A stretch of DNA of 64,000 nt from Bradymonadia bacterium. GTDB taxonomy: Bacteria; Myxococcota_A; Bradymonadia; UBA7976; UBA1532. Under the pieces are notes generated by a model. That model was not told the DNA's origin. It searched no databases and was given only the letters and a program-made list of their open reading frames with translations. Position numbers and translations under genes: made by a program. Positions 1 to 36,438 of this stretch are shown in pieces (positions within the stretch are counted from its first letter, which is position 1; each line of letters begins with the position of its first letter). The stretch lies in assembly GCA_046290225.1 (NCBI GenBank), contig JBKAGE010000035.1:416001-480000 (forward strand), in the 5' to 3' direction.

Positions 1-492
1 AACCCCGAGGATGGCCCGGGCGAGGCCCTTCGCGTCTAGATCTGGCTTGAGGTGTCCATCGCTCACGCCTTGCTCAATGCGTTGGGTGAGCATCATCAGT
101 GTCGCAGTACGGCGGTTGATGAGATCGGCATCAGCGTCAGCGCTCTTGGGCTGGTCGAGGCGCCCGGAAGAGAGCACCGCGCACCCACGTGGGCGGTCAG
201 GGCGAGTAAAGGTCGACACCGCGCTGACCAGCAACGCTCTGAGCGCCTCACCAGCATGAGGGCGGCTCAGAGCGCTCACCATGAACCCGCCGTTCTGGGC
301 GTTGTAGAGGTCCATGGCACGACGGAACAGATCCGCCTTGCTGCCAAAGGTGTTGTAGAGGCTCGACGGGCCGATCTCGAGGGCCTCGGTGAGATCATTG
401 ATCGAGGTCGCCTCGTATCCGCGGCGCCAGAACACCTCGGCGGCGATCTCCAAGCTCTCGTCCACAGGGCGTTTTCGGGGTCGGCCTGCCAT
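1..492 (-). CDS. TetR/AcrR family transcriptional regulator (3' end runs off the window; not in ORF track)
   Basis: Manual translation from ATG at 492: MAGRPRKRPVDESLEIAAEVFWRRGYEATSINDLTEALEIGPSSLYNTFGSKADLF, a typical TetR HTH; starts 8 bp downstream of the SDR stop. Confidence 0.9.
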   Translation of the reverse strand, partial: MAGRPRKRPVDESLEIAAEVFWRRGYEATSINDLTEALEIGPSSLYNTFGSKADLFRRAMDLYNAQNGGFMVSALSRPHAGEALRALLVSAVSTFTRPDRPRGCAVLSSGRLDQPKSADADADLINRRTATLMMLTQRIEQGVSDGHLKPDLDAKGLARAILGV

Positions 493-500
493 GGCTCACC

Positions 501-1253
501 TCACAGTTCGGTCATCCCGCCGTCGACCACGTACTCGGACCCTGTGACGAAGGCGGCGTCGTTGGACAACAGGAACGATGCCACCGCAGCAACATCTTCA
601 GGAGTGCCGAAGCGGCCGAGGGGCACCCGTGCGACGATTTGCTCTGCCATGCCATTGATCTGCTCTTGGGACATGCCCGTGCGATCGAAGAAGCCAGTGC
701 TGATGGGCCCGGGGCTCACAGCGTTGACCCTGATCTTACGGCCGGCGAGCTCAGCGGCGAGCACGCGGGTCACGGTGCGTAGGGCGCCCTTGGTGGAGGC
801 GTAGACCACGGCACCTGGCATGCCGAGGTCTTGTGCGACCGAGGTGTTCAGGACGACCGCTCCACCGTCGGCGATGAGCCCGGAGATGGCGCCTACCTGA
901 AGCACTGGGCCTCGAACGTTGACGTTGTACTGTTGATCGAAGGCCTCAGCGGTGATTTGGTCATGGGGGATGAAGACGCCGTACCCAGCATTCAGGAAGA
1001 GACCATGGATCTGACCGAAGTTGTCTTTGATCCAGCTGGTCAGGGTGGCGACAGCCTCTGGATCTCCTGCGTCGTTCACCAAGGTGCGCAGGCCGGGGAT
1101 TTGGGCCTTGGCGGCATTGAGTTTCACTTCGTTGGTGCCGGTGACGAGGACCTCGCCGCCTTCTTCGATGATGCGCGCTGCCGTGGCCAGGCCGATGCCA
1201 CCAGAGCCACCCGTGATGACGATCTTCTGTCCTTCAAAGCGCTTCATGGTCAT
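501..1253 (-). CDS. SDR family NAD(P)-dependent oxidoreductase
   Basis: TGGSGGIG Rossmann motif, NAG, YASTK catalytic motif, VNAVSPG, C-terminal DGG. Confidence 0.95.
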   Translation of the reverse strand: MTMKRFEGQKIVITGGSGGIGLATAARIIEEGGEVLVTGTNEVKLNAAKAQIPGLRTLVNDAGDPEAVATLTSWIKDNFGQIHGLFLNAGYGVFIPHDQITAEAFDQQYNVNVRGPVLQVGAISGLIADGGAVVLNTSVAQDLGMPGAVVYASTKGALRTVTRVLAAELAGRKIRVNAVSPGPISTGFFDRTGMSQEQINGMAEQIVARVPLGRFGTPEDVAAVASFLLSNDAAFVTGSEYVVDGGMTEL

Positions 1254-4163: not shown

Positions 4164-7100
4164 ATGTTGAAACGTCGCCATGTATGGGGGGCCTGCGCGT
4201 CCCTGAGCTTGATGGTGTTCTTTGGCTGTGCAGATGGGGGAGATCCTGTGGGTGCCTCCGACACGGATGCCATGGCCCCCCGAGACACCGGCCCACCCAT
4301 CAGACCTGATGCTTCTCTCGTCTTCAGACCCGACGCTGCGATGCTCGGTGCCTTCGGTGATCCGTGTCGCAGTGGGGCTGAGTGTGCTTCAGGCTTCTGT
4401 ATCGAAGCCCCTGCCGGTGGAAAGGTGTGCACCGAGCGCTGTGTGGGCGGTGAGTGTCCAGAGGGCTTCGAGTGTACTCCCGTTGATTCTGATGGTGCCG
4501 ATCGCGACTTCTACTGTCTCGCTGATCGCCCTGATCTCTGTCGTCGGTGCGCTTCGGATCGCGAGTGCGACGACAATGAAGATCTCTGCCTGCAAATTGG
4601 CTTGAGCACCTGGTGTGGTGAGGACTGCTCCCGCACGGGAGTTTGCCCTGATGGTTACGAGTGTGTCGATGTCATCGGGCGTCAGATCGCCGACGAGATC
4701 GAGGATCTCGATGCTGGGGTAGGGGATGCTGGCTTGACCTTCCGCCAGTGTGTGCCCGTGGAGCGGGCCTGCGCGCCGTGCACTGATGCTGATGGCGATG
4801 GGTACGGTGATGGCGATGATTGCCTGGGCTTCGACTGCAACGACAACGATCCTCTGACCCACGAGGGGGCGCCGGAGCTGTGTGATGGTCGCGACAACAA
4901 CTGCAACTCCCTGGTGGACGAGCCAGAGTCGCTGACCACGCCCCCTGCAGACATGACCTGTCTCAGCGACGGGGTCTGCCTCGGCAGTGTGGTCATCTGC
5001 TTGGAGGGTGGCTGGGCCTGTAACTACCCTGAGGTCTACGAGAGCCCCGCCGAGCTCAGCTGTGACGGGCTCGACAACGATTGTGATGGTACAGCCGACG
5101 ACGACTTTGATCTCCAGGTCGACAACGCCAACTGCGGATTCTGTGGCAACGCGTGCACCTATGAGAACGCTGAAGGCCTCTGCGAAGCGGGTCAGTGTCT
5201 GCTCGGGCCCTGTGAAGAGGGCTTCCACAACAACGACGGCATCATCGAAAACGGTTGTGAGTACGTCTGCGTGATCACCCAGGAAGGCGTAGAGGCCTGC
5301 GACGAGGTGGACAACGACTGTGACGGGCAGACCGATGAGGACTTCGACGTACAGACAGATGTGGCCCATTGCGGCGCCTGCAACAGCGCCTGTGATTTTC
5401 CTCGGGCCATGCCGGTGTGCGCCGAGGGTGCTTGTGCCATTGAAGCGTGCGAAGCGGGATGGGTCGATCTTGATGGTGAGCTGGCCAACGGTTGCGAGTT
5501 CGAGTGTGCGCCGAGCAATGGCGGGGTCGAAGCCTGTGACGAGGTGGACAACGACTGTGATGGGCAGACCGATGAGGACTTCGATCTGCAGATCAGCCTC
5601 GATCACTGCGGCGCCTGTAACGCGGTGTGTGCCTTCGCCAACGCCAACCCGCTGTGTGCCGCTGGTGATTGCCAGCTCGAGTCGTGTCAGCTGGGCTGGT
5701 TCGATGCCAACAACAGCATCGACGATGGCTGCGAGTATGCCTGTGTGCTCACCAACAATGGTGCCGAGGCCTGTGACGAGGTGGACAACGACTGCGATGC
5801 TCGGACCGACGAGGACTATGATCTGAGCTCGGACGTGCAGAACTGTGGTCAGTGCCGAAACCAGTGCTTCTTCGCCAACGCAGCCTCTGCCTGTGAGGAT
5901 GGCGGGTGTGTACTCGCGGCCTGCAACGAGGGCTTCTTCAACATCGATGGTCGGCTGGACAATGGCTGCGAATATGCCTGTGTGCCGAGCAACGGTGGTG
6001 TCGAGATCTGCGACGAGGTGGACAACGACTGTGATGGGCAGACCGACGAAGATTTCAACCTGCTCTCCGACGTCGACAACTGCAACCGGTGTGGGAACGC
6101 ATGTGCCCTGCCCAACGCCTTCAATCGCTGTGTCACCGGCGCCTGCCGCATTGCCCAGTGCCAGGAGAACTTCTACGACATCGACGGGATTCTGGAGAAC
6201 GGCTGTGAGTACAGCTGCGCGCTGACGAACGGCGGTGTCGAGGTTTGCGACAACATCGACAACAACTGCGATGGCCAGGTGGATGAGGTCTTCGACTTCG
6301 ACGTGAGCCTGGAGCATTGCGGTGGGTGCAACCAGGCCTGCGAGCGTGACGGCGCGACGGCGGTCTGCTTTGGTGGGAACTGCCGACTCGACACCTGCCT
6401 CGAGGGTTTTGAAGATCGCGACGGCCTCGAAGAGAACGGCTGCGAGTTCGAGTGTCAGGACGAAGACTGGCCCGACGCCGAGGGCATCGACGCCAACTGT
6501 GATGGCATCGATGGTGACATCTCTGATGCTGTCTTCGTTTCAGCTGACGGTCGCCCCGGCGCTGCGGGCACCATCGACGACCCCTTCGACAGCATCAATG
6601 CCGCCATCACCCGGGCCGAGGACCTGGACATGCATCAGGTGCTGGTCTCCAGCGGGACCTACTCAGGCATCGTCGTGGTGCGCAACGGCGTGGGTGTGTA
6701 CGGCGGGTACGATGCCATGGGTGGCTGGCGGCGAAACTTCGGTGCCTTCATCAGCCGCATCGAAGGGGCCGGCTTCGGCATGATCATCGCCAACATCGAC
6801 GAGCGCACTGACGTACAGGGCATGCACATCACCAGCCTCGACGCTGCGGTCTCAGGGCAGTCGGTCTACGGCGTGTATGTCCGTGATGCCGTCGAGGGGG
6901 CGCTGACCCTGTCTCACAACGTGATCTCCTCCGGTGACGGCGGCAACGGGACGGGTGGCCGGGACGCGACGTTCCAGCCCTCCGCTGATCTCAACGGTGG
7001 GGCTGGCACCAACGGCCAGAACGGCGACGATGGCGGGAGCAGCAACGGCAACGGTGGGCCTGGGGGCACCTCGAGCTGCAACCGGACCGGCGGCAACGGC

Positions 7101-20234: not shown

Positions 20235-21041
20235 ATGAACGAGCGCAACCCCACATCCATCCCCGAGCACCAGCGCAGGCTGGTGTATTCGCTGTTGCGG
20301 CCCGTAGCCCGGCTGTGTCGGCGGTTCCACCTGCCTCTGAAGGCAGTGGAGGAGCTGTGTCGGCTGGCCTACTACGAAGAGCTCAAGCGCACCCCTGATC
20401 TCACCCAGACCGACATGGCTCGGCTGCTGGGCACATCGCTGCGCACTGTGGGCAACCTCGCCCACCAGCACCGCGGCGATTTCTTGAGCCCCGAGCAGGA
20501 GCAGGGCCTCGCCCGTGAGATCGAAGAGGCGCTGAGCCACGGCCCCCTGAGCCTCGACGGCCTGATCGCCGCCCTCACCCACGTGAGCCCGGATCAGATT
20601 CAGCGTCTGTTGCCGAGTCTCGTGGACTCTGGCCGTCTCACGGCAGAGGCCGGATCTCCAGTGACCTACCGCCTGGAACCAGCGTGGGTCTCCCTGGTCC
20701 GCGAAGACATGCAGGCCCGGATCGATGGTCTGAACCATCAGCTCGATGTCATCGCTGCGGCGGTGCGCACCCGTTTTCTGGCCATCGACGAGCGTCCCGC
20801 AGTGGCGCGGACCTTGTCTTTCGCGGGTACGCCAGAAGACATGCAGAAGCTCGGTCGGGCCATCGCCCAGCAGCTTCGAGTGCTCTGCAGCGAGGCAGAA
20901 GAAGACGCCCTCGAGGCTGGGGGCCACCAACGTTACGCGGTGACCTTCGCCCTGGCGCCCGTCGACGAGCCCCCACATTCAGCACAAGACGATGATCTCG
21001 CCCATCGGGCGCCCAAAACAGGTACGCGGAGAAAGAAATGA
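20235..21041 (+). CDS. Putative HTH regulator, DUF6502-like N-terminus
   Basis: LLRPVARLCRRFHLPLKAVEEL..., HTH TQTDMARLLGTSLRTV, second winged-helix-like segment. Confidence 0.65.
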   Translation: MNERNPTSIPEHQRRLVYSLLRPVARLCRRFHLPLKAVEELCRLAYYEELKRTPDLTQTDMARLLGTSLRTVGNLAHQHRGDFLSPEQEQGLAREIEEALSHGPLSLDGLIAALTHVSPDQIQRLLPSLVDSGRLTAEAGSPVTYRLEPAWVSLVREDMQARIDGLNHQLDVIAAAVRTRFLAIDERPAVARTLSFAGTPEDMQKLGRAIAQQLRVLCSEAEEDALEAGGHQRYAVTFALAPVDEPPHSAQDDDLAHRAPKTGTRRKK

Positions 21042-22513
21042 AGATGCGCAATTGGCTGACGCTGGCCGTGATGCTGGGCATGACCGGCTGTATCGCCGAG
21101 TCGGCGACGGACGAGGGTGGAGAGGTCGCTGTCGGCTCAGGCGGCGCGAGCGGCGAGAACACCCCGGAGATTCGCGAGACGGGTTATCTCGTGTGCATGC
21201 CCGGCGCTGCTGCGTGCATCACCGGCCTCGCCTGTGAGACCCCCAACGGGGAGATTGATTGTCTGCCGTTCGCTGAAGCGTGCGCCGAGAACCCTACCTG
21301 CGAGTGTGCGGGCGATGTGTGTCGCCAGGGTCGTGTCTGTGTCGATCAAGATGACGGCAGCATCGCTTGTGAAGGCCCCAATGAGCCAGACCCGGATCCA
21401 GGCCCTGGTCCAGATCCTGATCCGGCCCCTGGTGCGTGCGAAGCGCTCGGGGAGGCAGCCTGCGCCGACAACGCTGATTGTGTGGCCTACTACGGGTACC
21501 CCTACCCCGCAGCCTGTGACGTCGAGTCGAACCCCGAGGCTCGGACCTTCGTGGCGTGTGGAGACGCGGAGCCCAACGCCGGCGCCTGCAACCCCGCCGT
21601 GGAGTGTGCGGCTGGCCCTGAGGGTGTCTTCGGGTTCCCGGAGTGTGTGCCCCCGGGCTATGGCGCGTGTCCGCCGGTGGACATGTGCTTCGAAGAGCCC
21701 AATGCATGCACGGGCCTCGATGAGGATGCGTGTCGAGCGGCTGACGGATGCTACCCGTACATGGCGTACGTGCTCGGGCAGGAGAACACGAGCTTCGTGG
21801 CGTGTGACACCCCGCCTGAAAACGGGTGCGATGACGTGCTCACGTGTGCAGCGAGCGCCGAGACTGGCGAAGCGCGCATCTTCCCCGACTCGTGCGTCGC
21901 CCCTGGCTGGGTCGCGGATGCGGAGGCATGCAACGCGCCCTCGCCCGCCGGGTGTGAGGGCCTCGACGAGGCCAGCTGTGTGTCCAAGCCTGAGTGTGTG
22001 CCTGTCATGGGGCATGTCTGGTGTGGCCCAGAACTCGACACCTTCATCTTTTGTGGTGAGCAAATCCCTGAGGAGCAGGACAAGCCTGGCATTGGCATCT
22101 GCCCTGCCTGTGCTGTCACCGCTGGAGGCGTCTGCATTGGGGTGCCTGGGGTGGGGGTGATCCAGACGAGCGAGAATCAGGAAGATGTATATGTCTACGA
22201 TGACTATGAGATCTTCGAGTGTGAAGAGCTGCCACCCTGCAACATCGGCTGTGACGAGCTGGGCGAAGAGGCCTGTATGGCGGCAGAGGCCTGTCGCCCG
22301 GTCTATGGCGCCCCTGCTCAGGAGATTTGCATGGAGGACTTCAGCAATTGGATGAGCGTTTATGGCGGCTGCATCGATGTTGATCGGGGCTGCGGCGACG
22401 CCGAAACGTGTGGTGAGGATCCGCGCGCGCTCATGCAATCACCCCTCGTATTCCCCGACACTTGCTTGCCCCAGGGCTGGGTGCCCTGTGATCTGGAGCA
22501 GGTCTGCGAATAG
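21038..22513 (+). CDS. Cys-rich repeat lipoprotein
   Basis: Lipobox MTGC; four C.xL(G/D)E..C.....C repeats; ATGA overlap with upstream gene. Confidence 0.8.
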   Translation: MKMRNWLTLAVMLGMTGCIAESATDEGGEVAVGSGGASGENTPEIRETGYLVCMPGAAACITGLACETPNGEIDCLPFAEACAENPTCECAGDVCRQGRVCVDQDDGSIACEGPNEPDPDPGPGPDPDPAPGACEALGEAACADNADCVAYYGYPYPAACDVESNPEARTFVACGDAEPNAGACNPAVECAAGPEGVFGFPECVPPGYGACPPVDMCFEEPNACTGLDEDACRAADGCYPYMAYVLGQENTSFVACDTPPENGCDDVLTCAASAETGEARIFPDSCVAPGWVADAEACNAPSPAGCEGLDEASCVSKPECVPVMGHVWCGPELDTFIFCGEQIPEEQDKPGIGICPACAVTAGGVCIGVPGVGVIQTSENQEDVYVYDDYEIFECEELPPCNIGCDELGEEACMAAEACRPVYGAPAQEICMEDFSNWMSVYGGCIDVDRGCGDAETCGEDPRALMQSPLVFPDTCLPQGWVPCDLEQVCE

Positions 22514-26039: not shown

Positions 26040-26696
26040 TTACGCCGCCTCGGCCACGAAGGCCTGGGCCAGTTTCCGAATTTTGAACTGCCAGTTGTAG
26101 ACCACCTGCCGGTTGACCCCCATGAGCTCTGCGGCCTGCTGTACCTCACAGCCATCGATGTAGAGCAACCGGAACACCAGCTGACCCTTCGGCGGGAGCG
26201 TCTGCATGAGGTGCGCTGACAGCCGGGCGGCCATTTGTCGATCCGCAGCGCTCTTTTCGGGATCAGCATTAGGGGCAGAAAGATCGTGGGCGTCGTCGAT
26301 GTCGGTCATCTTCTGATCGCCGCCTCGTTTGATGGCTCGGGCCTTCTGCAGCCGATTCCCGATCTCGCGATCGGTCACCATGCCCACGTACCACTCCAGC
26401 GAGGCCTTGCGCGGATCGAAGTTGCGCAGCTGGGCGCCGTCCTCCCGCATGAGCACGAGCCAGACCTCTTGCACGATGTCGTGGCCATCTTCTGCGGCGG
26501 TCATGCGCCCCGACTGTCGAGCGAGGGCCCGACGCACATGGGCGCAGATGACGGGCATCAGGCGCCGAATCAGCATCTTCTGAGCAGCGCGTTTGCCTGT
26601 GAGGGCGCCGCGGATCAGATCGAAGTCGGGGTGTTCGACGCCTTCGGCAGCGAAGACGACGGCGAGGAGTGTGGGCCAGGGGATCAGGACGTTCAC
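26040..26696 (-). CDS. ECF RNA polymerase sigma factor
   Basis: Region 2 DIVQEVW...FDPRKASLEWY; region 4 LPPKGQLVFRLLYIDG..AAELMGV...VYNW. Confidence 0.9.
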   Translation of the reverse strand: MNVLIPWPTLLAVVFAAEGVEHPDFDLIRGALTGKRAAQKMLIRRLMPVICAHVRRALARQSGRMTAAEDGHDIVQEVWLVLMREDGAQLRNFDPRKASLEWYVGMVTDREIGNRLQKARAIKRGGDQKMTDIDDAHDLSAPNADPEKSAADRQMAARLSAHLMQTLPPKGQLVFRLLYIDGCEVQQAAELMGVNRQVVYNWQFKIRKLAQAFVAEAA

Positions 26697-26723
26697 GGCA
26701 ACCCGAAGGGCGGCCGTCAGTGG

Positions 26724-27578
26724 TCACGGCCGCTCGATCTCGTCAGCAGAGCGTCGATAGTCGACGAAGACGGGATACCATTGTGTGGTTCGGGCGTCCA
26801 CGCTGGCTCCATCAGTGAGCGCTGTGTCGGGCTCGCCGACGAGGGCGCTGGCGGCATCAGGATCGGTGGAGATCACGACATAGAGTACGAAGCGGCCATA
26901 GCGCTCGCCGAGCCATGGTCCGATCTCGGCGGTCAGCCTGAAGGCGCCCGAGGCCCCAGTGTCGAGGGTGTAGCCGGCGGGCGCTTTGCTCAGAGCGCCG
27001 CCCTCTTCGGCCATGAGCACAGCGAAGGTGGGGGCTTGGCCCGAGATGTCTTTCTTGGGACGCACGATGAGCTTGATTTTGCTCTCGGGCAGGTAGACAC
27101 CCCATTTGGCTTTGGGCTGATCTTCGCTGCGGATCATCGACACGGCGCCTTGGGGGGTGTCCATGCCATAGCTGGGCAGAGCGGGCAGATCTTTCCGGGA
27201 TCCGATCGTGGTCCATACGACCAGCAGCACGCCAGCAGCGAGGGCGCCGAGGGAGACCCACGTGGCCCATTGCCGCTTGGGCGCAGGCATTTGCTCGAGA
27301 GCCCACTGCTCCAGGCTGGCTTCGGTGGTGGGCGCATAGGCGAGGGCGAGACGCCGAGCTTCAGCATCCACGGCGAGCTGTCCGGCGACGGTGTCACTGG
27401 TCTCGTCGTCGAGGCGACCCCCACGGAGGGCGGCGATGGTGACGAGATCGAGCTCACTGTCCAGGGGCTCACTGCTCAGGGACTCACTGTTCAGGGGCTC
27501 GCTCGGAGGGCAGAGCTTGAGCAGATCGTCGATGGGATCAGGCTCGAGAGGGCCTTCTGGTGGCGTGGGTGTGCTCAT
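26724..27578 (-). CDS. Putative anti-sigma factor (single TM helix, extracytoplasmic domain)
   Basis: About 100-aa N-terminal domain, TM WVSLGALAAGVLLVVW, C-terminal beta-rich domain; adjacent to ECF sigma. Confidence 0.6.
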   Translation of the reverse strand: MSTPTPPEGPLEPDPIDDLLKLCPPSEPLNSESLSSEPLDSELDLVTIAALRGGRLDDETSDTVAGQLAVDAEARRLALAYAPTTEASLEQWALEQMPAPKRQWATWVSLGALAAGVLLVVWTTIGSRKDLPALPSYGMDTPQGAVSMIRSEDQPKAKWGVYLPESKIKLIVRPKKDISGQAPTFAVLMAEEGGALSKAPAGYTLDTGASGAFRLTAEIGPWLGERYGRFVLYVVISTDPDAASALVGEPDTALTDGASVDARTTQWYPVFVDYRRSADEIERP

Positions 27579-27590
27579 GTGTCGTGCATG

Positions 27591-30074
27591 TTATGGCGAC
27601 TCTGGCTTCATGCTCAGAGCCGAGTAGTTCGTCGCTGTCATGCTCGATTGAGTCATCTTCACCGACAACAGCGCACCCTTGATGTCGGGTATCAGGTGTG
27701 CGTCGAAATGAGATTCGATGTTCTCGATTTTCACCTGACCTCCAGGCACCCAGTCGCCCAGATGGCTGTAGTGAGTGAGGTCGACCTCGTGCACATCGCC
27801 ATTGATGAGCACATACAGTTTGGGATCAGTGATGATCGTCTCTTCCGGATAAGCGCGGCTGAGCCATAAGTCCAACGAGAAGCGGATGGAGTCATCTCGA
27901 TCGTTGGTGGCGACGACCCCGTTACACGCCGGGCAGAGTTCACCACCCGGTTGAGGCCCGAGGCGCCCGAGGGTCACGCGATCCCAGTCGAAGCGCCCGG
28001 CGCACACGCCATCTTCGCATGGGAGCCAGGCGTCGGGGCCCGGCGCTGACTCTGGCGGGGTGACCTCTTGCCCATCGAGACAACGGTTGTGGGCGCTGGT
28101 CATCTCATCCGACCAGTCGACGGTGATCTCCGAGGGCTCACAGCTGCGATCTTGAGTCATCTCGATGCGGCAGAGTCCCTCGATGAGCCTGCTGCATGCT
28201 TGAATGAGATCTCGGTTTGCGAAGACTTCAGGGCCTGCTGCTTCATCGAGGCATCGGAAGATCTTGGGCAAGAACCGAGCGTCGCACTCAGAGACCAGCG
28301 CCTCGGCGCGGGCAAGGGACACTTGGCGCACGGGGGTGCCATCGCCGGTCTCGCGACAGAGGCCCTCGCCGGTGATGTAGAGCAGCCGGGACATGACGTG
28401 ACCTGAAGGCAGATCGAAGGTGTCGCCTTGATCCCGGCGTACGCCGAGGTGCCCGTAGAGACGGGAGGCCGCTGCGGTGACCAGAGCCGTGGCCACCGAG
28501 GTGCCCGTGAAGACGGCGGGCAGGCGCAGCACACGCTCTCCCGTGTCGTGATCGGCTTCATCGACGCTGCACAGATCCACCCCCGTCCAGTCTTGGACGA
28601 TGTCGGGGTTGTCGGGGAGGGTGATCGAGCCCCCCGAGGTGACATAGACATGCTCGGCGGGCGCCACCAGAGGGGTCTCCTGATCAGGGATCGAGAGGCC
28701 GATGGGATCACGGGCAGCGTTGACGCCGCTGATGGGCGTAATCAGAGCCATCTCGTGGCCTCGATGATCACACGAGGGGTACTGGCCCCAGCGGGCTGGG
28801 TACAGGAGATGAGGGCCCTTGATCGATGGCGGAGGGCACGGATCACCCTCGGTGTCATCGATGCGGTTGTTGAACATGTCAGGTCGGGTGTGGGTGAGGG
28901 GTCGGTTGCCCGCTGCACCCAACACCATGATGGGCTGGCGCGCAGAGTCCATCTGCCGCGCGCCGGAGAGCATGTATCGCACCGGCTCGCCCTGGCTCGC
29001 TTCTACGGTGGAGCACTTGTTGAGGCCCTCTACCGTACGCGGGTGCTCCAGCTCGGGGGCCCACCCCAGGCTCATGTTGAGCAGCAAGGGCTTGTCCGCC
29101 GCTGGCCCCTCGCGCTCGAAGATCGCCTCGTCCAGCGCTTGAGCCAGGTGACCGCTGACCCCGCTGCCGTTGTTGTCGAAGACCCTCAGAGATCTGACCG
29201 CGGCGGAGTACTCGGTGAGAGAAGAGAGCAGGAGCGCCATGCCCAGGCCGTGCAGGTGGGGCGTCTGATCGCCGGTGTCTCCGATGTCGGCGTTGCTCTC
29301 CATGCTGCCGTTGACCCGTACGAAGTCATCGCTCAAACCTGTATCGATGAGCACTGCCGAGGTGGCCTGGCGCCAGGCGGGTTGATTGATGGCGTCCTGG
29401 TTGGGTCGAAAGCTGATCGCCTTTTTATGCCATGTGGTGAGGCGGCCCTCTGCCAGGGCTTGAGGGCCAGAGACACCCATGGCGCACCAGCGCCGGCTCA
29501 CTTTCATGTCATCGGCCAGCCGGTTGGCCGACGCGCTGGCCTCTTGGATGAGCGAGAGCACAGTGCACACATGATTTTCGTGCACCGAGAGCGGCCTCAC
29601 GTCGTGATGGGTGAGCGCGTCGGAGTGGAAAGACACCTGGTAAAAGCGCAGATGACCATCGCGCCGCCACTTCGGGATGCCTTTGTGACTGCGATTGGGC
29701 AGCACCATGTCCACGGATGCGCGGATCATCCGCCCTCGGCCGATCGCATCACATGCGTCTTCGCCACGATCTCCCGGATCGCAGAAGACGTCGCTCATCT
29801 CATTCTCTGCGAGCTGTGCGTTCAGCGCCTCGGCCAGGCGTGCTGCGAATCCGGCGTCTGGGGCTGAAGACCACAAGGGCGTGTCGACATTGAAGACGCG
29901 TGTACGCTCGGTACATGCCGCATTGGGGATGGGCTTGGTGTCACCGTGCGCAGCCAGAAGTACCCGGTCAGATCCCGGTTGAGCCTTCTTGGGGGCGCTG
30001 CAGGCTGGGGCCGCGGCGAGAAACATGGCGGCCAACACGACACCACTGCACCAGTGCTCTTGCTTCATTGTCAC
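27591..30074 (-). CDS. Subtilase (peptidase S8)-like Cys-rich lipoprotein
   Basis: VLIDTG (Asp), HLHG (His), LNMSLG, AAGN (oxyanion Asn), GTSVA (Ser); lipobox-like APAC; C-terminal PQP..CPAC. Confidence 0.82.
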   Translation of the reverse strand: MTMKQEHWCSGVVLAAMFLAAAPACSAPKKAQPGSDRVLLAAHGDTKPIPNAACTERTRVFNVDTPLWSSAPDAGFAARLAEALNAQLAENEMSDVFCDPGDRGEDACDAIGRGRMIRASVDMVLPNRSHKGIPKWRRDGHLRFYQVSFHSDALTHHDVRPLSVHENHVCTVLSLIQEASASANRLADDMKVSRRWCAMGVSGPQALAEGRLTTWHKKAISFRPNQDAINQPAWRQATSAVLIDTGLSDDFVRVNGSMESNADIGDTGDQTPHLHGLGMALLLSSLTEYSAAVRSLRVFDNNGSGVSGHLAQALDEAIFEREGPAADKPLLLNMSLGWAPELEHPRTVEGLNKCSTVEASQGEPVRYMLSGARQMDSARQPIMVLGAAGNRPLTHTRPDMFNNRIDDTEGDPCPPPSIKGPHLLYPARWGQYPSCDHRGHEMALITPISGVNAARDPIGLSIPDQETPLVAPAEHVYVTSGGSITLPDNPDIVQDWTGVDLCSVDEADHDTGERVLRLPAVFTGTSVATALVTAAASRLYGHLGVRRDQGDTFDLPSGHVMSRLLYITGEGLCRETGDGTPVRQVSLARAEALVSECDARFLPKIFRCLDEAAGPEVFANRDLIQACSRLIEGLCRIEMTQDRSCEPSEITVDWSDEMTSAHNRCLDGQEVTPPESAPGPDAWLPCEDGVCAGRFDWDRVTLGRLGPQPGGELCPACNGVVATNDRDDSIRFSLDLWLSRAYPEETIITDPKLYVLINGDVHEVDLTHYSHLGDWVPGGQVKIENIESHFDAHLIPDIKGALLSVKMTQSSMTATNYSALSMKPESP

Positions 30075-30116
30075 CTCACCTCCCGAAAAACCAAACCAGA
30101 GTATGGTGTACAGGGC

Positions 30117-32813
30117 CTAAGGGCGACCCCAAATCTGAAATACTGACCTCACCTCGGGATCTTTACGTGCGAGGGTAGAGATCGCTTTACGAAAAGCCTT
30201 TCCTGGCTCGCTGAGGCCTCCGTGACCGTAGAAAAGTCGAGTAAATTCAGAGCTGAGTCGATCATCCACGTCTCTGCTGGTCGACACCACGGTGCGGGTG
30301 CCCGACGCCAGAAAAACTTCGGGCAGCCCGATCGACTCGTGTTGACTCAGCTCACCCTGAGCGCCTGTCCTGCACCCCGAGAGCACAGCCAGTCTGGCCC
30401 TGGGCTGGATCGAAATGAGCTCGGCCAGGGTGAGCTTCTCTTCACCTGAGAGCTTGAGGTTGATCTTCCAGGGCTGTCGCGAGAGCAGCGCGCCGTGACC
30501 TGCGAAGTGAAACAGAGTGGTGCGCCCCAAACTGCGCGCGATCTCACCCTTTGCCGTCTGATGATCCATGAGGTGGTGCTCGACCTTGAGCGCCTTGAGG
30601 TGATCCGACAGCCAGTGACCTTCTCTGCGGGCGAAGGGTAGATCCTGGTTTGGGTCCATCACGATGACTGGCTGACCAGTGAATTTGACGTCATCCAAGT
30701 TCGACAGTGTTGAGATGGACGGCAACAGACTGATCGAGTGCTCGGGGAACACCAGGTGGCCTCGAAAGGCTTCGTGTTTTCTGTTTGGCACGAAGAAATG
30801 GTGCCTTGCGGCGCCCTCGGTGACTTGTGCGCTGAGGGCGGCGAGCGTCGGCGCGTACTTCACCTGTGTTTTGTCGATGTAGTACGTCTCCCAGTCACGC
30901 CCATCTGGCTTGAAGAAGATGATCGCTTCACCCTCTTCGAGCGAGCTGACGTGATGATCGAAGTAGGACGCCAGCGTACGATCGACGCCTCGTTGGCCGG
31001 CCTCTGCATATTGTTTGTCGAGAGATGACAGCAGTTTGTCTATTCGGTCAGACTCCGCGCGCCTTCGCCGTTTGAGCGCGTCAGCTGACATCAAATCATT
31101 CGATGCCGTCTCTTGCTCCAGTAGAGCGTTAGAAGGTGTGTTTGCTTTGTTGACCGCGAGGTGGCTGATGATCCTGTTGCTGGACAAATCATACAGAGAG
31201 ATCGCCTCTTTCAGATGATCTGAGCTGATCAGCTGATCTGCAAAATGATGAATGAATCTAGATTGGTTGCTGTATATCAGGCTCTTGGAATGGCTGAAGT
31301 CGGCCTTCCTGGCCGAGTCATTCAGGTGCGCCCACGCTTCGTTCAACAGAGCGAGCGTCTCCTCTGGGCGAGAGAGGCCCTGATTGATCTCGGAGATCGT
31401 GCTCTTGGCGATGAAGTTGTAGTAGGTGTTCAGGCCATCAGGGCCATTCTGAGAGGCGTTGACGAGCTGAAACAGTAAGGCTGTTGATGCCTCCTCATGC
31501 CCGAAGTCTCTCATGATCATCGAGAGCGTCAGGATCGAGAAGAGCCTGTCATCCAAGGTTGTTTTGTCGTCATGAATCTGATCGATGATTTGCTCAATGG
31601 ACAGGAGATCACCCGTTGCCAGTCTGATTGAGCTGGATTCGGTCAGCATCAAGCTATAGGCCGAATCAAACCCATGCTTCATGGCAATGTTGAGTGCTGC
31701 GTTGTAGTCCTCTACCGATAAATCAAATAAAGACGAGCTTTGGTGTGCGACTGCAGCCTGGAAATATTCGTATCCTCGGGTCCGGTAGACTGTCATTTGC
31801 TCAACTGGGCTGAGAAATCCCAGGCTCGACTCGATGATCGAGCTGTACCCATCAATCGCACCCCAGCTCTCACCTATCATCGAATTGATCTTCGACATCG
31901 AATAGTTCGAGCTCAGGAAATACCGGAACATCCCGCTCATCGAAGCGATGCGTATGGACTCGAGGGTTTTTTCACCGGCGGAGATGATGTCTCCATCAAA
32001 ACGAGCGAGGACCCCGGCCTGGTATTGAATGGCAGCCAGAGCGCCAGAGGATGCCAGTCCAGCTTCATGGTGGTCGTAGATGTCGAGCGCGCGATCGAGT
32101 TGAGCCTTCGCGAGGCCCATCTGGCCGGTCGTCGAGTAAAGGTGGACCAGTGCAATACAGCGCTGGATGGCCTCGCTGACAGCCCCGACCTGCAATGCTG
32201 TGTCAGCGGCTGTTTTCCATGACTTGATCGCCGCTTCGAAGTCCTGGTTCTGAAAATGGATGCGCCCCAGCTCAACCTCGGCCCACATGCGATCCAGACC
32301 ACTGAGCCTGTCTCTCGAGTCGTTTAACAGGGACTCTGCTTCTGCGAATTTTCCGGCTCTGCGCAGGGCGATGATCGGCTTCAATTCAGGCACCTGGCTC
32401 GGCGCGTGAGCCCAGATCACAGGCCAACGTCGAGCTTGATGCTCACGCTGACTTGCTTCTATCCAGCCATCGCCCTCCCAAGACTCTGGCACGCCCTCGG
32501 TGAAGATCCATCGGTACTCTCCGAGCTGGATCTCTTTGAGCGCACCTGCCTCGCGTTCTCCATTGGGCCCCATGAACCATACCGATACAGAGATGGGGCC
32601 TGTGCTCAGCTGACCATCCAGCCGGATACGGGGTGTGCGTTGGGCATCGTAGATGGGCAGATAAGCCACACCGCGTTTGACCAGTGTGCGTGCGCCGGCG
32701 AGATGGGCCGGCAAAGCTCTTGAAGGCGCTGGAGGTGCAGAGGTGCGCTCAGAGTCGCAGCTGAGTAGAGCGACCGAGAAGAGCATGAGGATCAGATACG
32801 AGACACCATACAT
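30117..32813 (-). CDS. TPR + CHAT (caspase-like) domain protein with lipoprotein signal
   Basis: DPNQDLPFARRE, FHFAGHG (His), VLSGCRTG (Cys), GLPEVFLASG, VDD; TPR-like helices; lipobox LLSC; start may be 32846. Confidence 0.9.
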   Translation of the reverse strand: MYGVSYLILMLFSVALLSCDSERTSAPPAPSRALPAHLAGARTLVKRGVAYLPIYDAQRTPRIRLDGQLSTGPISVSVWFMGPNGEREAGALKEIQLGEYRWIFTEGVPESWEGDGWIEASQREHQARRWPVIWAHAPSQVPELKPIIALRRAGKFAEAESLLNDSRDRLSGLDRMWAEVELGRIHFQNQDFEAAIKSWKTAADTALQVGAVSEAIQRCIALVHLYSTTGQMGLAKAQLDRALDIYDHHEAGLASSGALAAIQYQAGVLARFDGDIISAGEKTLESIRIASMSGMFRYFLSSNYSMSKINSMIGESWGAIDGYSSIIESSLGFLSPVEQMTVYRTRGYEYFQAAVAHQSSSLFDLSVEDYNAALNIAMKHGFDSAYSLMLTESSSIRLATGDLLSIEQIIDQIHDDKTTLDDRLFSILTLSMIMRDFGHEEASTALLFQLVNASQNGPDGLNTYYNFIAKSTISEINQGLSRPEETLALLNEAWAHLNDSARKADFSHSKSLIYSNQSRFIHHFADQLISSDHLKEAISLYDLSSNRIISHLAVNKANTPSNALLEQETASNDLMSADALKRRRRAESDRIDKLLSSLDKQYAEAGQRGVDRTLASYFDHHVSSLEEGEAIIFFKPDGRDWETYYIDKTQVKYAPTLAALSAQVTEGAARHHFFVPNRKHEAFRGHLVFPEHSISLLPSISTLSNLDDVKFTGQPVIVMDPNQDLPFARREGHWLSDHLKALKVEHHLMDHQTAKGEIARSLGRTTLFHFAGHGALLSRQPWKINLKLSGEEKLTLAELISIQPRARLAVLSGCRTGAQGELSQHESIGLPEVFLASGTRTVVSTSRDVDDRLSSEFTRLFYGHGGLSEPGKAFRKAISTLARKDPEVRSVFQIWGRP

Positions 32814-33138
32814 ATCGGGAGGGCTACACTCCGAATCGAGCATCAAGCGGGTGACTGAGTATCGCCCTGATGCCGGCGCTTGTCACCTGTGGGGGGCCAG
32901 CGCCTCGCAGAGATGCGGGGGTGCAGAGGCTGGCTGCTCTGGTGGCCACGGCTGGCTCAGCCAGGCCGATCGATTTGTCGTGAATGGCTACTCCAGTGAC
33001 CACTCTCTGGGGAGCAGATCTGCCTGCATCAGGGGATGCTTCAACGGATTTCAAAGGTTTTCAGGCTGGATCGACCCTTGCTAACACCACCCGATCTCGA
33101 GCCGCCAGATGCGCGGCAGTGTGACGGGAGGCCTCATC

Positions 33139-36100
33139 ATGAGCCTGAGCAGAACATTTTTATCTCGGGGCGTGGCCCTGATCTTCATCGGGGCCCTCGC
33201 CGTTGGCTGTGCAGGCCAGGACCCCGACAACGACGACATCGACCGTGGCGTCGGTGGTGCTGGTGCCGGTGGTATGGCCGGCGAGGGTGGAGCCGGCGGT
33301 GCTGGCAACCGTGCCGGCGGTGGCCAGTTCGACTGCATCGACAACGATCGTGACGGTTACGGCCGTGGCCCTGGTTGTTTGGGCCCTGACTGCGACGATA
33401 ACGACAACCGCGTGAACCCCGTGGCCGTCGAGCAGTGCAACGGGGTGGACGACGACTGCAACGGGGTGACGGACGACAACCTCATCGCCCCTGATTGTGC
33501 CCAGCAGTTCGGTGTGTGTGCCGGTGCCCGCAAGACCTGTGGTGGCGCCGAGGGCTGGCTCGACTGCAGCGGCCCCGCGAGCTATGGCCCCCAGTACGAA
33601 GGTGGCTCCGAGAGCCTGTGTGATGGCCTCGACAACAACTGCGACGGCCGTACCGACGAGGGCTGCCCCTGCAACCCTGGCCAGTCCCGACCCTGTGGTC
33701 AGGCCGAAGGTGAGTGTCGTCAGGGCGTGCAGAACTGCAGCGACGGCGGCACCTGGGGCGCCTGCGAGAGCGAGGTTGGTCCCCAGAACGAGGTCTGTGA
33801 CGGCCGGGACAATGACTGTGACGGCAACATCGACGAAGAGGTCGGCGCCATGGCGCCCGACTGCGAGCGCACCGCCGGTGTCTGCGCCGGTGCCAGCGCC
33901 CGCTGCCTCGGCCAGCAGGGTTGGGGCGCGTGTGGTGCTCAGGAGTACGGTGAGACCTGGCGCGCCGAAGAAGGTCCTGGCGATTGCGATGGCCTCGACA
34001 ACGACTGCGACGGCAACACCGACGAGTCCTGCAACTGCCAGGATGGCGAGACCCAGCCCTGTGGCAGCAACATCGGCCTGTGCACCCCCGGCACTCAGAC
34101 CTGTGTGAACGGCGCCTTTGGTGAGTGCCGGAACGCTGTTGAGGCGGCCCCCGAGGTGTGCAACGGCGCCGACGATGACTGCGACAGCAACGTGGACGAG
34201 GGTGTCGAAGCCCCCGCCTGCGCCCTGAACCAGGGTGTCTGCGCGGGCGCTGTGCAGGCCTGCAATGGTGAGGCAGGCTTCGCTGAGTGTGATGCCGCCC
34301 GCTACCTGGCTCAGAGCCCCGCTTATGTCGAGGTGGAGACTGCCGAGCACTGTGACGGCCTCGACAATGACTGTGACGGTCTGCAGGACGAAGAGTGCGA
34401 GTGCGTCGACGGCGCCACGCAGGTGTGTGGCGTGAACGTGGGCGCCTGCACCCAGGGTGAGCAGGTCTGTGCCGGTGGCCGCTTCGGCGAGTGCTCCGGT
34501 GTGGCCCCTGTGGCCGAGACCTGTGACGCCGTGGACAACGACTGCGACGGCAACGTCGACGAAGAGATCGAGACCCCTGTGTGCCCCTTGGACCAGGGTG
34601 TTTGTGCCGGCGCCCGTCAGCGCTGCGTCGATGGCGCCTTCGGGGCCTGTGGCGAGCAGGAGTACGGCCCGCAGTACGAGGCCGACGAGGCCAGCTGCGA
34701 TGCCGTGGACAACGACTGTGATGGTGAGGTGGACGAGGGCTGCGGCTGTGTCGACGGCACCGTGCAGTCCTGTGGCAGCAACGAGGGCGCCTGCTCCCAG
34801 GGTACCCAGACCTGCGCCGGCGGTGAGTTCCAGCCCTGTGAGGGGGCCATCGATCCCGTGGACGAGCAATGCAACGGCCTCGACGACGACTGTGACGGCA
34901 ACACCGACGAGGATCTCGTCGGCCCCGCCTGTGCCCTGCAGGTGGGCGTCTGCGCCGGCAGCGTGCAGGTCTGTGGTGGCGAGGGTGGCTTCGCCGCCTG
35001 TGGTGCCGAGCAGTATGGCCCCCGCTACGTCGCCGAAGAGACCGACGCTGATTGTGACGGCGCCGACAACGACTGCGACGGCAACATCGACGAGTCCTGT
35101 GAGTGTGTCGTCGGCCAGCCCCAGCCCGCTTGTGGCACCAACGTCGGCGCCTGCGAGTCCGGGGTGCTGGTGTGCAACAACGGCGTCTTCGGTGAGTGCG
35201 AAGGCGAGGTGCCCCCGGTGGCCGAGCTTTGCGACGGCGTGGACAACGACTGTGATGGCAGCACCGACGAGGACATCCAGGCCCCTGCGTGCGCCCTGCA
35301 GGTGGGCGTCTGCGCAGGCAGCGTGCAGCAGTGCGCCGGTGATCTGGGCTTCGTCGAGTGCGTGAACGAAGAGTACGGCCCCAACTGGGTGGCCGAAGAG
35401 ACCGCCGACAACTGCGACGGCCTCGACAACGACTGCGATCTACTCGTCGACGAGGCCTGCGCGCCCCCGGCGGTGGTCATCAGCGAGATCTACTACGACG
35501 GCCCTGGTCGTGACGGCCCCAACGAGTTCATCGAGCTCGCTGGCCCGCCCGGGCAGCGCCTCAACGGCATGAAGCTCACCGCTTGGAACGGCAACAATGG
35601 TGAGGAGTACGCCGAGATCTCCCTCGACGGGCTGCGGATCCCCTTCAACGGCTTCCTGTTGCTCGTGGACGAGAACGCCAGCGAAATCATGACTGATCTC
35701 GCTGATGCCGTGCTGCCCAACGTCGATCTTCAGAACGGCCCTGACAGCCTCTGGCTCACGTGGAACGAGGACGAGTTGCTCGACGCCGTGGGCTATGGCG
35801 TCTTTGGCGAAGAGGACAACTTCCTCGGCGAGGGCACCCCGGCGCCTGCCGCCGTGGAGCAGAGCATCACCCGTGACGACAACCTCACCGACAGCGATGA
35901 CAATGGCGCCGACTTTGTCACCAGCGGCAACACCGCGGTGGGCGTGCCCACCCCTGGCGGTGCGCCGATCCCCCGGATGCACATCTCACTGCGCTGGGGC
36001 CTCGACGGCACCGACGTCGATCTGCACCTCATCCGTGAGGGTGGGCTGTTCTTCTCGGTACCCGACGACGCTTTCTACGCCAACCGGACCCCCGACTGGG

Positions 36101-36438
36101 GCGTGCTCGGTGACGCCTCGGACAACCCCCGCCTCGACCGAGACGACGTCGACGGCTTGGGGCCCGAATTCATGTTCTATCAGAACCCCGTGCCGGGCCG
36201 TTATCGGGTGGTGATCCACTACTGGGATGCCTTCATCGACGCCATGACCGCAGGGCCTGTGGACGCCACTGTGAAGGTCTTCATCGATGGTGAGCCGACC
36301 CTGACCCTGACGAACACGGTCACTGGTGAGCTGCCCTACTGGGGTGTGGCGGAGATCGCTGTGGGTGAGGATGGGATGATCATGGTTACAGAAGAGAACG
36401 TGATCAGCGCCGACATCTTGGAAGGCCCCCAGCCCTGA
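33139..36438 (+). CDS. Large Cys-rich repeat lipoprotein with lamin-tail-like and YfaP/DUF2135-like C-terminal domains
   Basis: Lipobox AVGC; about 12 CDGxDNDCDG repeats; VVISEIYYD..NEFIEL..LQNGPD; LRW..TDVDLH..LDRDDVDGLGPE. Confidence 0.85.
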   Translation: MSLSRTFLSRGVALIFIGALAVGCAGQDPDNDDIDRGVGGAGAGGMAGEGGAGGAGNRAGGGQFDCIDNDRDGYGRGPGCLGPDCDDNDNRVNPVAVEQCNGVDDDCNGVTDDNLIAPDCAQQFGVCAGARKTCGGAEGWLDCSGPASYGPQYEGGSESLCDGLDNNCDGRTDEGCPCNPGQSRPCGQAEGECRQGVQNCSDGGTWGACESEVGPQNEVCDGRDNDCDGNIDEEVGAMAPDCERTAGVCAGASARCLGQQGWGACGAQEYGETWRAEEGPGDCDGLDNDCDGNTDESCNCQDGETQPCGSNIGLCTPGTQTCVNGAFGECRNAVEAAPEVCNGADDDCDSNVDEGVEAPACALNQGVCAGAVQACNGEAGFAECDAARYLAQSPAYVEVETAEHCDGLDNDCDGLQDEECECVDGATQVCGVNVGACTQGEQVCAGGRFGECSGVAPVAETCDAVDNDCDGNVDEEIETPVCPLDQGVCAGARQRCVDGAFGACGEQEYGPQYEADEASCDAVDNDCDGEVDEGCGCVDGTVQSCGSNEGACSQGTQTCAGGEFQPCEGAIDPVDEQCNGLDDDCDGNTDEDLVGPACALQVGVCAGSVQVCGGEGGFAACGAEQYGPRYVAEETDADCDGADNDCDGNIDESCECVVGQPQPACGTNVGACESGVLVCNNGVFGECEGEVPPVAELCDGVDNDCDGSTDEDIQAPACALQVGVCAGSVQQCAGDLGFVECVNEEYGPNWVAEETADNCDGLDNDCDLLVDEACAPPAVVISEIYYDGPGRDGPNEFIELAGPPGQRLNGMKLTAWNGNNGEEYAEISLDGLRIPFNGFLLLVDENASEIMTDLADAVLPNVDLQNGPDSLWLTWNEDELLDAVGYGVFGEEDNFLGEGTPAPAAVEQSITRDDNLTDSDDNGADFVTSGNTAVGVPTPGGAPIPRMHISLRWGLDGTDVDLHLIREGGLFFSVPDDAFYANRTPDWGVLGDASDNPRLDRDDVDGLGPEFMFYQNPVPGRYRVVIHYWDAFIDAMTAGPVDATVKVFIDGEPTLTLTNTVTGELPYWGVAEIAVGEDGMIMVTEENVISADILEGPQP

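Follow-up and report, generated by a model that had tools for sequence, protein, structure and literature searches.

What holds together two proteases, a single-pass membrane protein and a sigma factor of the extracytoplasmic function (ECF) type in one bacterial gene cassette is the question raised by a 64,000-nucleotide stretch of a Bradymonadia genome (GCA_046290225.1, contig JBKAGE010000035.1, positions 416,001 to 480,000), hereafter called the window. Four open reading frames (ORFs) on the minus strand encode, from upstream to downstream, a TPR-CHAT protease (909 residues), an S8 subtilase-like protease (827), an anti-sigma-like protein (284) and the sigma factor (218), with gaps of 42, 12 and 27 bp (Table 1). 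The ORF coordinates bore out this co-directional layout as given by a first-pass annotation, which had read the four genes as a CRISPR-independent cascade of two envelope proteases releasing the sigma factor for non-self sensing, defence or development. We consider it probable, with some reserve, that the cassette is a regulated-proteolysis switch. The membrane anti-sigma factor would keep the ECF sigma factor inactive until the TPR-CHAT lipoprotein cleaves it after Arg150, outside the membrane, whereupon an RseP-type protease would release the sigma factor; genes predicted to encode RseP-like M50 proteases are present in the genome. The subtilase might act upstream, freeing or presenting its C-terminal tail and so activating TPR-CHAT.

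The anti-sigma factor and the pocket of the protease

The family profile of the membrane protein matches the ChrR anti-sigma domain (E 7.6e-4) and 3hug_B (E 0.018), and this homology argues for its earlier assignment as an anti-sigma factor; one transmembrane helix is predicted. The HxxxCxxC zinc motif is retained by 16 relatives out of 58 and, in another set, by 75 out of 150, and the window copy has no His or Cys ligands; the best fold match of its Ig-like (immunoglobulin-like) sandwich (Z 8.4, root-mean-square deviation 2.8, 109 aligned residues) is of a generic level. In look-alike clusters a minority of members have DUF4384, and such clusters from the Atlas include Acidobacteriota ones. 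The sigma factor matches TIGR02937 (E 7.5e-19), its closest titled relatives being labelled Myxococcota, Bradymonadia or Myxococcales.

The protease has a CHAT domain (Pfam PF12770, E 1.7e-22) and weak TPR matches, and its predicted structure (mean predicted local distance difference test, pLDDT, 80) has a TPR solenoid between an N-terminal beta domain and the protease domain. The nearest solved folds are DdvA, ranked first, and Csx29, ranked second, with separase also among them; DdvA is in addition the best CHAT-containing sequence match (E 3.2e-12). The His784 and Cys825 dyad, earlier judged intact, is invariant across 58 homologues. The strict lipobox rule is passed by 44 of 65 CHAT ORFs, the failures including ORFs without an N-terminus, and from this the envelope location first proposed for the protease is predicted; the lipobox-like signal claimed for both proteases thus stands well for CHAT and less well for the subtilase, whose family is mixed, relatives bearing a lipobox in some cases and a signal peptide without Cys in others, as judged by eye.

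About 20 residues past the membrane the anti-sigma family has a conserved Arg followed by a small residue. Among 150 further representatives, Arg or Lys occupies this predicted P1 site in 145 and the following residue is small (Gly, Ser or Ala) in 125. Covariation with the protease was analysed in 58 cognate pairs (60, less L030 with a truncated CHAT and L110, misaligned at the site); among 245 CHAT columns the clearest separation of Arg from non-Arg pairs was given by 782 (p 2e-7), 742 (3e-6), 739 (5e-5) and 862 (2e-3). These columns sit in the first CHAT-core helix, after the last core strand and two residues ahead of the catalytic His. In clan CD enzymes the S1-forming regions are alpha1, L3 and L5 (PMC4357240), and to these elements the four columns would correspond, as judged from sequence and model. 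Glu742 and Ala782 occur together in 47 of 50 Arg pairs, the window pair being of this canonical Arg/Glu/Ala type, and in none of the eight non-Arg pairs. All three Lys pairs have Asp782, a single Arg pair has the acid shifted from 742 to 782, and an acid at one position or the other is kept in all 53 pairs with a basic P1. The eight non-Arg exceptions represent five to six separate events on the CHAT tree (FastTree), on which L004 and L005 join as a long-branch pair. Ten other conserved anti-sigma columns reached at best p 7e-5 or weaker against CHAT. The covariation of the pocket with residue 150 thus points to the anti-sigma factor as the protein on which CHAT would act, as had been suspected.

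Table 1. Features of the four-gene cassette, in window coordinates.
Feature	Position	Residues	Strand	Remark
TPR-CHAT lipoprotein protease	30117..32846		-	clan CD, separase/Csx29/DdvA-like; likely start ATG 32813
Predicted lipidated Cys30, CHAT lipobox	32757..32759	30	-	lipobox rule
N-terminal beta domain of CHAT protein		about 47-145	-	
TPR helices of CHAT protein		about 156-565	-	
CHAT alpha/beta part		about 640-909	-	
Predicted S1-pocket residues	30621-30623, 30501-30503 (30501..30623)	Glu742, Ala782	-	canonical arginine-type
CHAT catalytic dyad	30495-30497, 30372-30374 (30372..30497)	His784, Cys825	-	invariant in 58 rows
S8 subtilase-like protease, predicted exported	27591..30074		-	likely start ATG 30068
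S8 C-terminal tail domain	27594..27968		-	QP-x4-CxxC, then predicted beta-sandwich
Single-pass class-I anti-sigma-like protein	26724..27578		-	
Three-helix anti-sigma domain	27339..27446	45-80	-	zinc ligands lost in window copy
Transmembrane helix of anti-sigma	27192..27257	108-129	-	prediction, single helix
Periplasmic Ig-like beta-sandwich	26751..27182	133-276	-	model
Arg150, predicted P1 of CHAT cut	27129..27131	150	-	lower-confidence loop ~20 residues past membrane
ECF sigma factor	26040..26696		-	
Hydrophobic N-terminal extension of sigma	26646..26690	3-17	-	possible membrane anchor

A hydrophobic N-terminal segment of 10-16 residues is found in 34 of 39 sigma factors scoring at least 200 bits, as against 7 of 34 with lower scores, and N-terminal extensions are uncommon among ECF groups (PMC7826278). 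That the segment is translated is supported by the L001 sigma gene, whose start overlaps the anti-sigma stop. It may anchor the sigma factor to the membrane or contact the anti-sigma helix. In a different family (L075, L078, L083 and L086) the segment is longer, fully transmembrane-like and followed by basic residues.

Distribution and co-inheritance of the four genes

The survey covered 96 loci: the window, 9 others from its own genome, 28 picked via S8 and 58 via the anti-sigma factor. The latter was found at 87 loci and all four genes at 44, these complete cassettes coming from 24 genomes in 9 families and showing 19 arrangements, which confirms the co-occurrence for which the first-pass annotation had proposed a neighbourhood survey. 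Selection by S8 was avoided by restricting the count to anti-sigma-anchored loci with full flanks (38 kept; 19 contig-truncated and one without an anti-sigma match set aside), among which the sigma factor was present at 36, CHAT at 24, S8 at 21 and all three at 18. CHAT occurred without S8 at 11 loci. Frameshifts in CHAT, S8 or sigma genes, due to decay or assembly errors, were seen at L029, L054, L109 and L124.

The tightness of these associations was evaluated with a distance-correlation (mirror) test on 41 complete loci and 500 within-genome shuffles. S8 and CHAT gave the tightest pairing, their correlation of 0.55 being equalled by none of the shuffles; the observed value was reached by 1 of 500 for sigma and S8 and by 3 for sigma and anti-sigma, whose correlations also stood above the shuffles, and, with a less distinct signal, by 16 for anti-sigma and S8.

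The order of the genes within the cassette carries no meaning, because complete cassettes occur in 19 arrangements. The anti-sigma gene precedes the sigma gene in the window, the reverse of the usual order as was first noticed, but it does so at 29 of 74 loci, with the usual order at 44 and a divergent one at the remaining locus; gene order was accordingly discarded as a meaningful trait.

With a single S8 query, matches were obtained in 13 of 27 genomes of the same family and in none of the 33 lying further off. Of 301 genomes in the phylum, 77 had a match to the anti-sigma profile, often a weak one, with eight candidates scored per genome; the profile also returned 439 clusters with E below 1e-30. 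The module is large and unannotated, with three complete copies in one genome: besides the window cassette, that genome has a complete cassette on C38, in the same order, and another on C76, in a different order, as well as five partial or variant ones. The CHAT gene of the window (30117-32813) has a lower GC content than its neighbours (0.66 vs. 0.75-0.81 at third codon positions) and forms the longest branch of the CHAT tree; the other CHATs of the genome are also long-branched, which suggests fast divergence.

Some of the variants depart from the common plan. At L005:9282-11123 (C37) an S8-CHAT pair with no adjacent ECF sigma gene is followed by a gene of 613 residues, in whose product an N-terminal region of no known kind is fused to a zinc-motif anti-sigma domain, a transmembrane segment and an Ig domain; its predicted P1 is Leu and the CHAT pocket is devoid of the acid. 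At L004:5057-10989 (C68) sigma and anti-sigma are enclosed by two divergent CHAT genes, of which one is truncated at the contig end, and a non-Arg P1 goes together with an altered CHAT pocket. At L006:10130-12135 (C73) the CHAT-S8 pair has neither the usual sigma nor the usual anti-sigma gene; its upstream flank carries a divergent sigma-like gene together with one for a GltJ-like membrane protein.

The subtilase, its tail and the competing readings

The window subtilase scores below the Pfam S8 cut-off (17.6 vs. 21.8 bits); of four paralogues in the genome three pass clearly or narrowly, and the fourth reaches 22.4 bits. The family profile matches Tk-subtilisin (E 1.9e-19), and Asp244, His275, Asn390 and Ser526, correctly recognized as intact at first sight, are invariant in 26 homologues; with the Asp-His-Ser order and oxyanion Asn of peptidase S8 present, the protein is a divergent subtilase. 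It consists of a putative prodomain, the catalytic residues, a Cys-rich linker and a C-terminal tail, in which the Pro and the CxxC are invariant. The Atlas provided no named family for the tail, and a protein search with its alignment gave one match.

A tail-profile search of 659 non-core neighbour proteins returned as its top two matches small lipoproteins of S8-less CHAT cassettes, at L058 (E 8e-5, hhalign 82%) and L003. A family-wide search gave five short-frame matches, two of which are free tail lipoproteins standing before a C14 caspase and CHAT (L126, L127) and three of which are S8 fragments from contig ends or frameshifts, so that L123, L124 and L125 were rejected as free tails; L089 and L110 were rejected as too weak. 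At L003, L126 and L127 the C14 caspase stands in place of S8. These three may be one lineage, and the free tail would therefore have about two independent origins. L003:3388-13170 (C78) has, besides this replacement, a second, unrelated TPR-CHAT downstream.

Because the S8 tail is found on its own, as a free lipoprotein, in four cassettes that lack S8 (L058, L003, L126, L127), S8 may act upstream. This suggests that the tail is a working part of the switch and the second protease a swappable upstream component, and we tentatively propose that S8 activates TPR-CHAT by releasing or presenting the tail. Of the two-protease cascade first envisaged, the general idea may still apply; the likelier order is S8, or the caspase replacing it, followed by CHAT. 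A fuller relay of three proteolytic steps in the envelope, resembling a caspase cascade outside the cytoplasm, in which a swappable initiator (subtilase or C14 caspase) releases or exposes a conserved CxxC beta-sandwich ligand and this activates TPR-CHAT, which cuts the anti-sigma factor at a co-evolving P1, with paralogous switches partly insulated and a membrane-anchored sigma factor as a second, pro-sigma-like checkpoint, is speculative and in our view doubtful as a whole.

The same core switch could operate with S8 as a product of the sigma factor, i.e., a protease secreted as an effector, to serve in predation or to remodel the envelope. This reading differs from the preferred one in the role of S8 only. 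We rate it as unlikely overall; with the core granted it would be a minority outcome, nearly as likely as S8 acting as an upstream component. It fits the frequent divergent or separate transcription of S8 among the 19 arrangements, the occurrence of S8 without the other three genes at the full-flank loci L044 and L053, and the presence beside sigma of an Ig-repeat/Kelch lipoprotein instead, at three S8-less loci. It fits less well with the retention of the tail as a lipoprotein of its own after the protease part was lost or replaced, with the tightest co-inheritance being that of S8 and CHAT, and with the lack of a shared sigma promoter before S8 genes, bar a pattern picked post hoc that occurs in 6 of 104 upstream regions.

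The proposed cut at Arg150 has its own competitor, in which the loop docks in the CHAT pocket or inhibits it uncut, the anti-sigma factor restraining CHAT or CHAT shielding the anti-sigma factor, while another protease, possibly S8, makes the site-1 cut. The P1-pocket covariation suits such a loop as well as it suits a substrate, the gingipain prodomain puts an Arg into S1 (PMC4357240), and S8 has its complete catalytic residues. A complex of CHAT (residues 53-909) with the anti-sigma factor (134-275) was predicted with a score of 0.54 (best control 0.00), with 93% or more of the contacts shared between runs and a pLDDT of 81 or higher for the partner; such a mark was attained by 116 of 157 solved pairs as against 2 of 215 mismatched ones, with 18 of the solved pairs and both mismatches at or below 0.60. 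The model lends weak support to the preferred reading, in which CHAT acts on the anti-sigma factor, and a weakly predicted stable complex is compatible with the inhibitory loop. The invariant dyad speaks for a working protease instead, as do the small residue that follows the Arg in most representatives, the RseP-sized stub that a cut at 150 would yield and the 11 CHAT loci that do without S8. Alternative substrates do not appear either: no CHAT column behaves as a self-cleavage site tracking its own pocket, and the specificity switches of CHAT have no counterpart in any S8 column (48 pairs, 6 of them non-Arg). We therefore hold the uncut loop to be quite unlikely.

S8 is thus co-inherited with CHAT and is not a detectable CHAT substrate; a cut by CHAT that activates S8 is without support because no S8 column follows the switches. 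A defence cascade, with a ligand-gated CHAT activating S8, S8 destroying the anti-sigma factor and genes for an anti-phage or non-self response being induced, is improbable: the SAVED-CHAT/PCaspase precedent for a step from CHAT to a second protease (bioRxiv 10.1101/2023.06.23.546230), the control of a CBASS-CRISPR island (CBASS, cyclic-oligonucleotide-based antiphage signalling system) by DdvA/DdvS (PMC11506125) and the long branches of the CHAT genes of this genome would agree with it, but the specificity switches are followed by the anti-sigma factor instead, PADLOC matches among the neighbours are nearly all to generic domains, and the genome (99.4% complete, controls detected) gave no Cas1 or RAMP match. 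Of 93 neighbours of complete cassettes selected for the scan, two partial or overlapping ones were omitted; 9 of the 91 scanned had PADLOC matches, all but one Uma2 nuclease through generic domains (kinase, polymerase, methyltransferase, subtilase, LuxR), and no defence system was found among the 91, so that the defence or non-self role first suggested is not upheld. The independence from CRISPR is, in contrast, retained, no array having turned up in the 20 largest families of repeats that the window contains.

Returning to a CHAT cut at Arg150 as the preferred reading, several observations weigh against it. The covariation p values ignore relatedness, the acid at 742 is kept in two of the five pairs with a non-basic P1 (L035, L092), and the P1 of L004 is ambiguous, Gln or Leu. 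Sigma and anti-sigma stand alone at 11 of the 38 full-flank loci, and the mirror test was not significant for anti-sigma and CHAT (28 of 500 shuffles) nor for sigma and CHAT (43 of 500). Motif expectation-maximization on cassette upstream regions gave coding-sequence bias only, and gapped-word enrichment nothing convincing, as a sigma promoter. Even for DdvA the CHAT cut is described as proposed and not as demonstrated (PMC11506125). As to the upstream role of S8, the free-tail match at L003 is weak (E 2.4e-3, hhalign 7%), and a clear free tail is present at only 2 of the 11 S8-less CHAT loci of the main set, with 2 more very weak.

Known systems and the genomic neighbourhood

The cassette is a real, conserved and unstudied version of a known type of switch that comes with a specific cleavage prediction: it would work like a split DdvA/DdvS and shares the ECF54 gene set, being a member of neither. 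In Myxococcus xanthus, a site-1 cut by CHAT followed by RseP has been proposed for DdvA/DdvS (PMC11506125; PDB 8rot, 8rw5). Common to both are an ECF sigma factor, a single-pass anti-sigma factor with, judging from homology, a class-I three-helix domain, and an extracytoplasmic TPR-CHAT His-Cys dyad, its location being here predicted from the lipobox. Unlike DdvA/DdvS, the cassette has its TPR-CHAT unfused, as a lipoprotein ORF of its own with an extra N-terminal beta domain, and an S8 partner whose gene lies between CHAT and anti-sigma; the anti-sigma factor has its own Ig-like domain and conserved Arg site and, in the window, no zinc-binding CHCC centre, and no CBASS/CRISPR island adjoins the cassette in the neighbourhood. 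In ECF54 the sigma gene stands beside subtilase and TPR-CHAT genes, as it does here, and proteolytic regulation was proposed, not shown; the group is described as 100% Actinobacteria, with no putative anti-sigma factor and a carboxypeptidase-regulatory-like protein at +1 (PMC7826278 supplement; PMC8999054). The hosts of the cassette are instead Myxococcota, its CHAT is a predicted lipoprotein, and its transmembrane anti-sigma factor is paired with sigma at 36 of 38 full-flank loci. No carboxypeptidase-regulatory-like Pfam match was found near it, and the periplasmic anti-sigma domain is a generic Ig-like sandwich.

These two systems are closer precedents than Csx29/Csx30, to which the cassette had first been compared. 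In type III-E CASP the TPR-CHAT protease Csx29 cuts the sigma inhibitor Csx30 (PMC10028731), and the TPR-CHAT fold (Csx29 being the second fold match) and intact dyad are shared; Csx29/Csx30 is cytoplasmic, gated by Cas7-11 and target RNA, and its anti-sigma factor is unrelated, while neither Cas1 nor RAMP was matched in the cassette genome, and the resemblance is in logic only. SAVED-CHAT/PCaspase of Haliangium is likewise a myxobacterial locus in which a sigma factor is accompanied by two proteases, but it is gated by cA3 (cyclic triadenylate), its CHAT cleaves the second protease and the sigma factor is itself cut (bioRxiv 10.1101/2023.06.23.546230), whereas the evidence for the cassette points to the anti-sigma factor. 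Sigma-70/metacaspase operons of Myxococcus also combine a clan CD protease with a sigma factor; the protease is a C14 enzyme, like the caspases that stand in for S8 at L003, L126 and L127, and not TPR-CHAT, and the accessible text describes no anti-sigma factor, S8 or cleavage site (PMC3501461). The four-gene arrangement itself was not described in the literature searched, which included few subscription papers.

The sigmaK pro-sequence is membrane-associated. By analogy only, the proteins being unrelated, Bacillus pro-sigmaK offers a case in which two proteases, SpoIVB and CtpB, gate sigma-activating intramembrane proteolysis (PMC6581720).

Since enzyme, substrate and bond are named for the split switch, together with natural specificity swaps (Arg, Lys, Met, Gln/Leu), a separase-like site-1 role in the bacterial envelope becomes open to testing with point mutants. 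The split switch also supplies a candidate activator, the S8 tail, and a mechanistic lead for the ECF54 gene set.

A promoter pattern picked by eye occurs in 6 of the 104 upstream regions taken from cassettes, and 11 of the 6126 genes in the genome match it (9 of them antisense); it was discarded as circular, missing before the window cassette and yielding no regulon. A large Ig-repeat lipoprotein with a Kelch/galactose-oxidase-like part, convergent to sigma, accompanies S8-less cassettes at L067:1523-5545, L069:8569-12135, L073:2688-6317 and L107:3-1283, and is a possible regulon member. No conserved fifth gene was found among the neighbour clusters of cassette loci, the commonest of which, in raw counts without a genome background, were one dominated by kinases, at 29 loci, and one of MopE-type repeat proteins, at 11. 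Elsewhere in the window (20235-22513, plus strand), a helix-turn-helix protein is followed by a probable Cys-rich lipoprotein of 491 residues with no Pfam or NCBIfam match. Large Cys-rich MopE-repeat proteins are encoded at 33109-36438 (plus strand) and at about 4900-6500, with similar ones near 11 related loci; in addition, the protein encoded divergently from the cassette weakly matches a lamin-tail domain.

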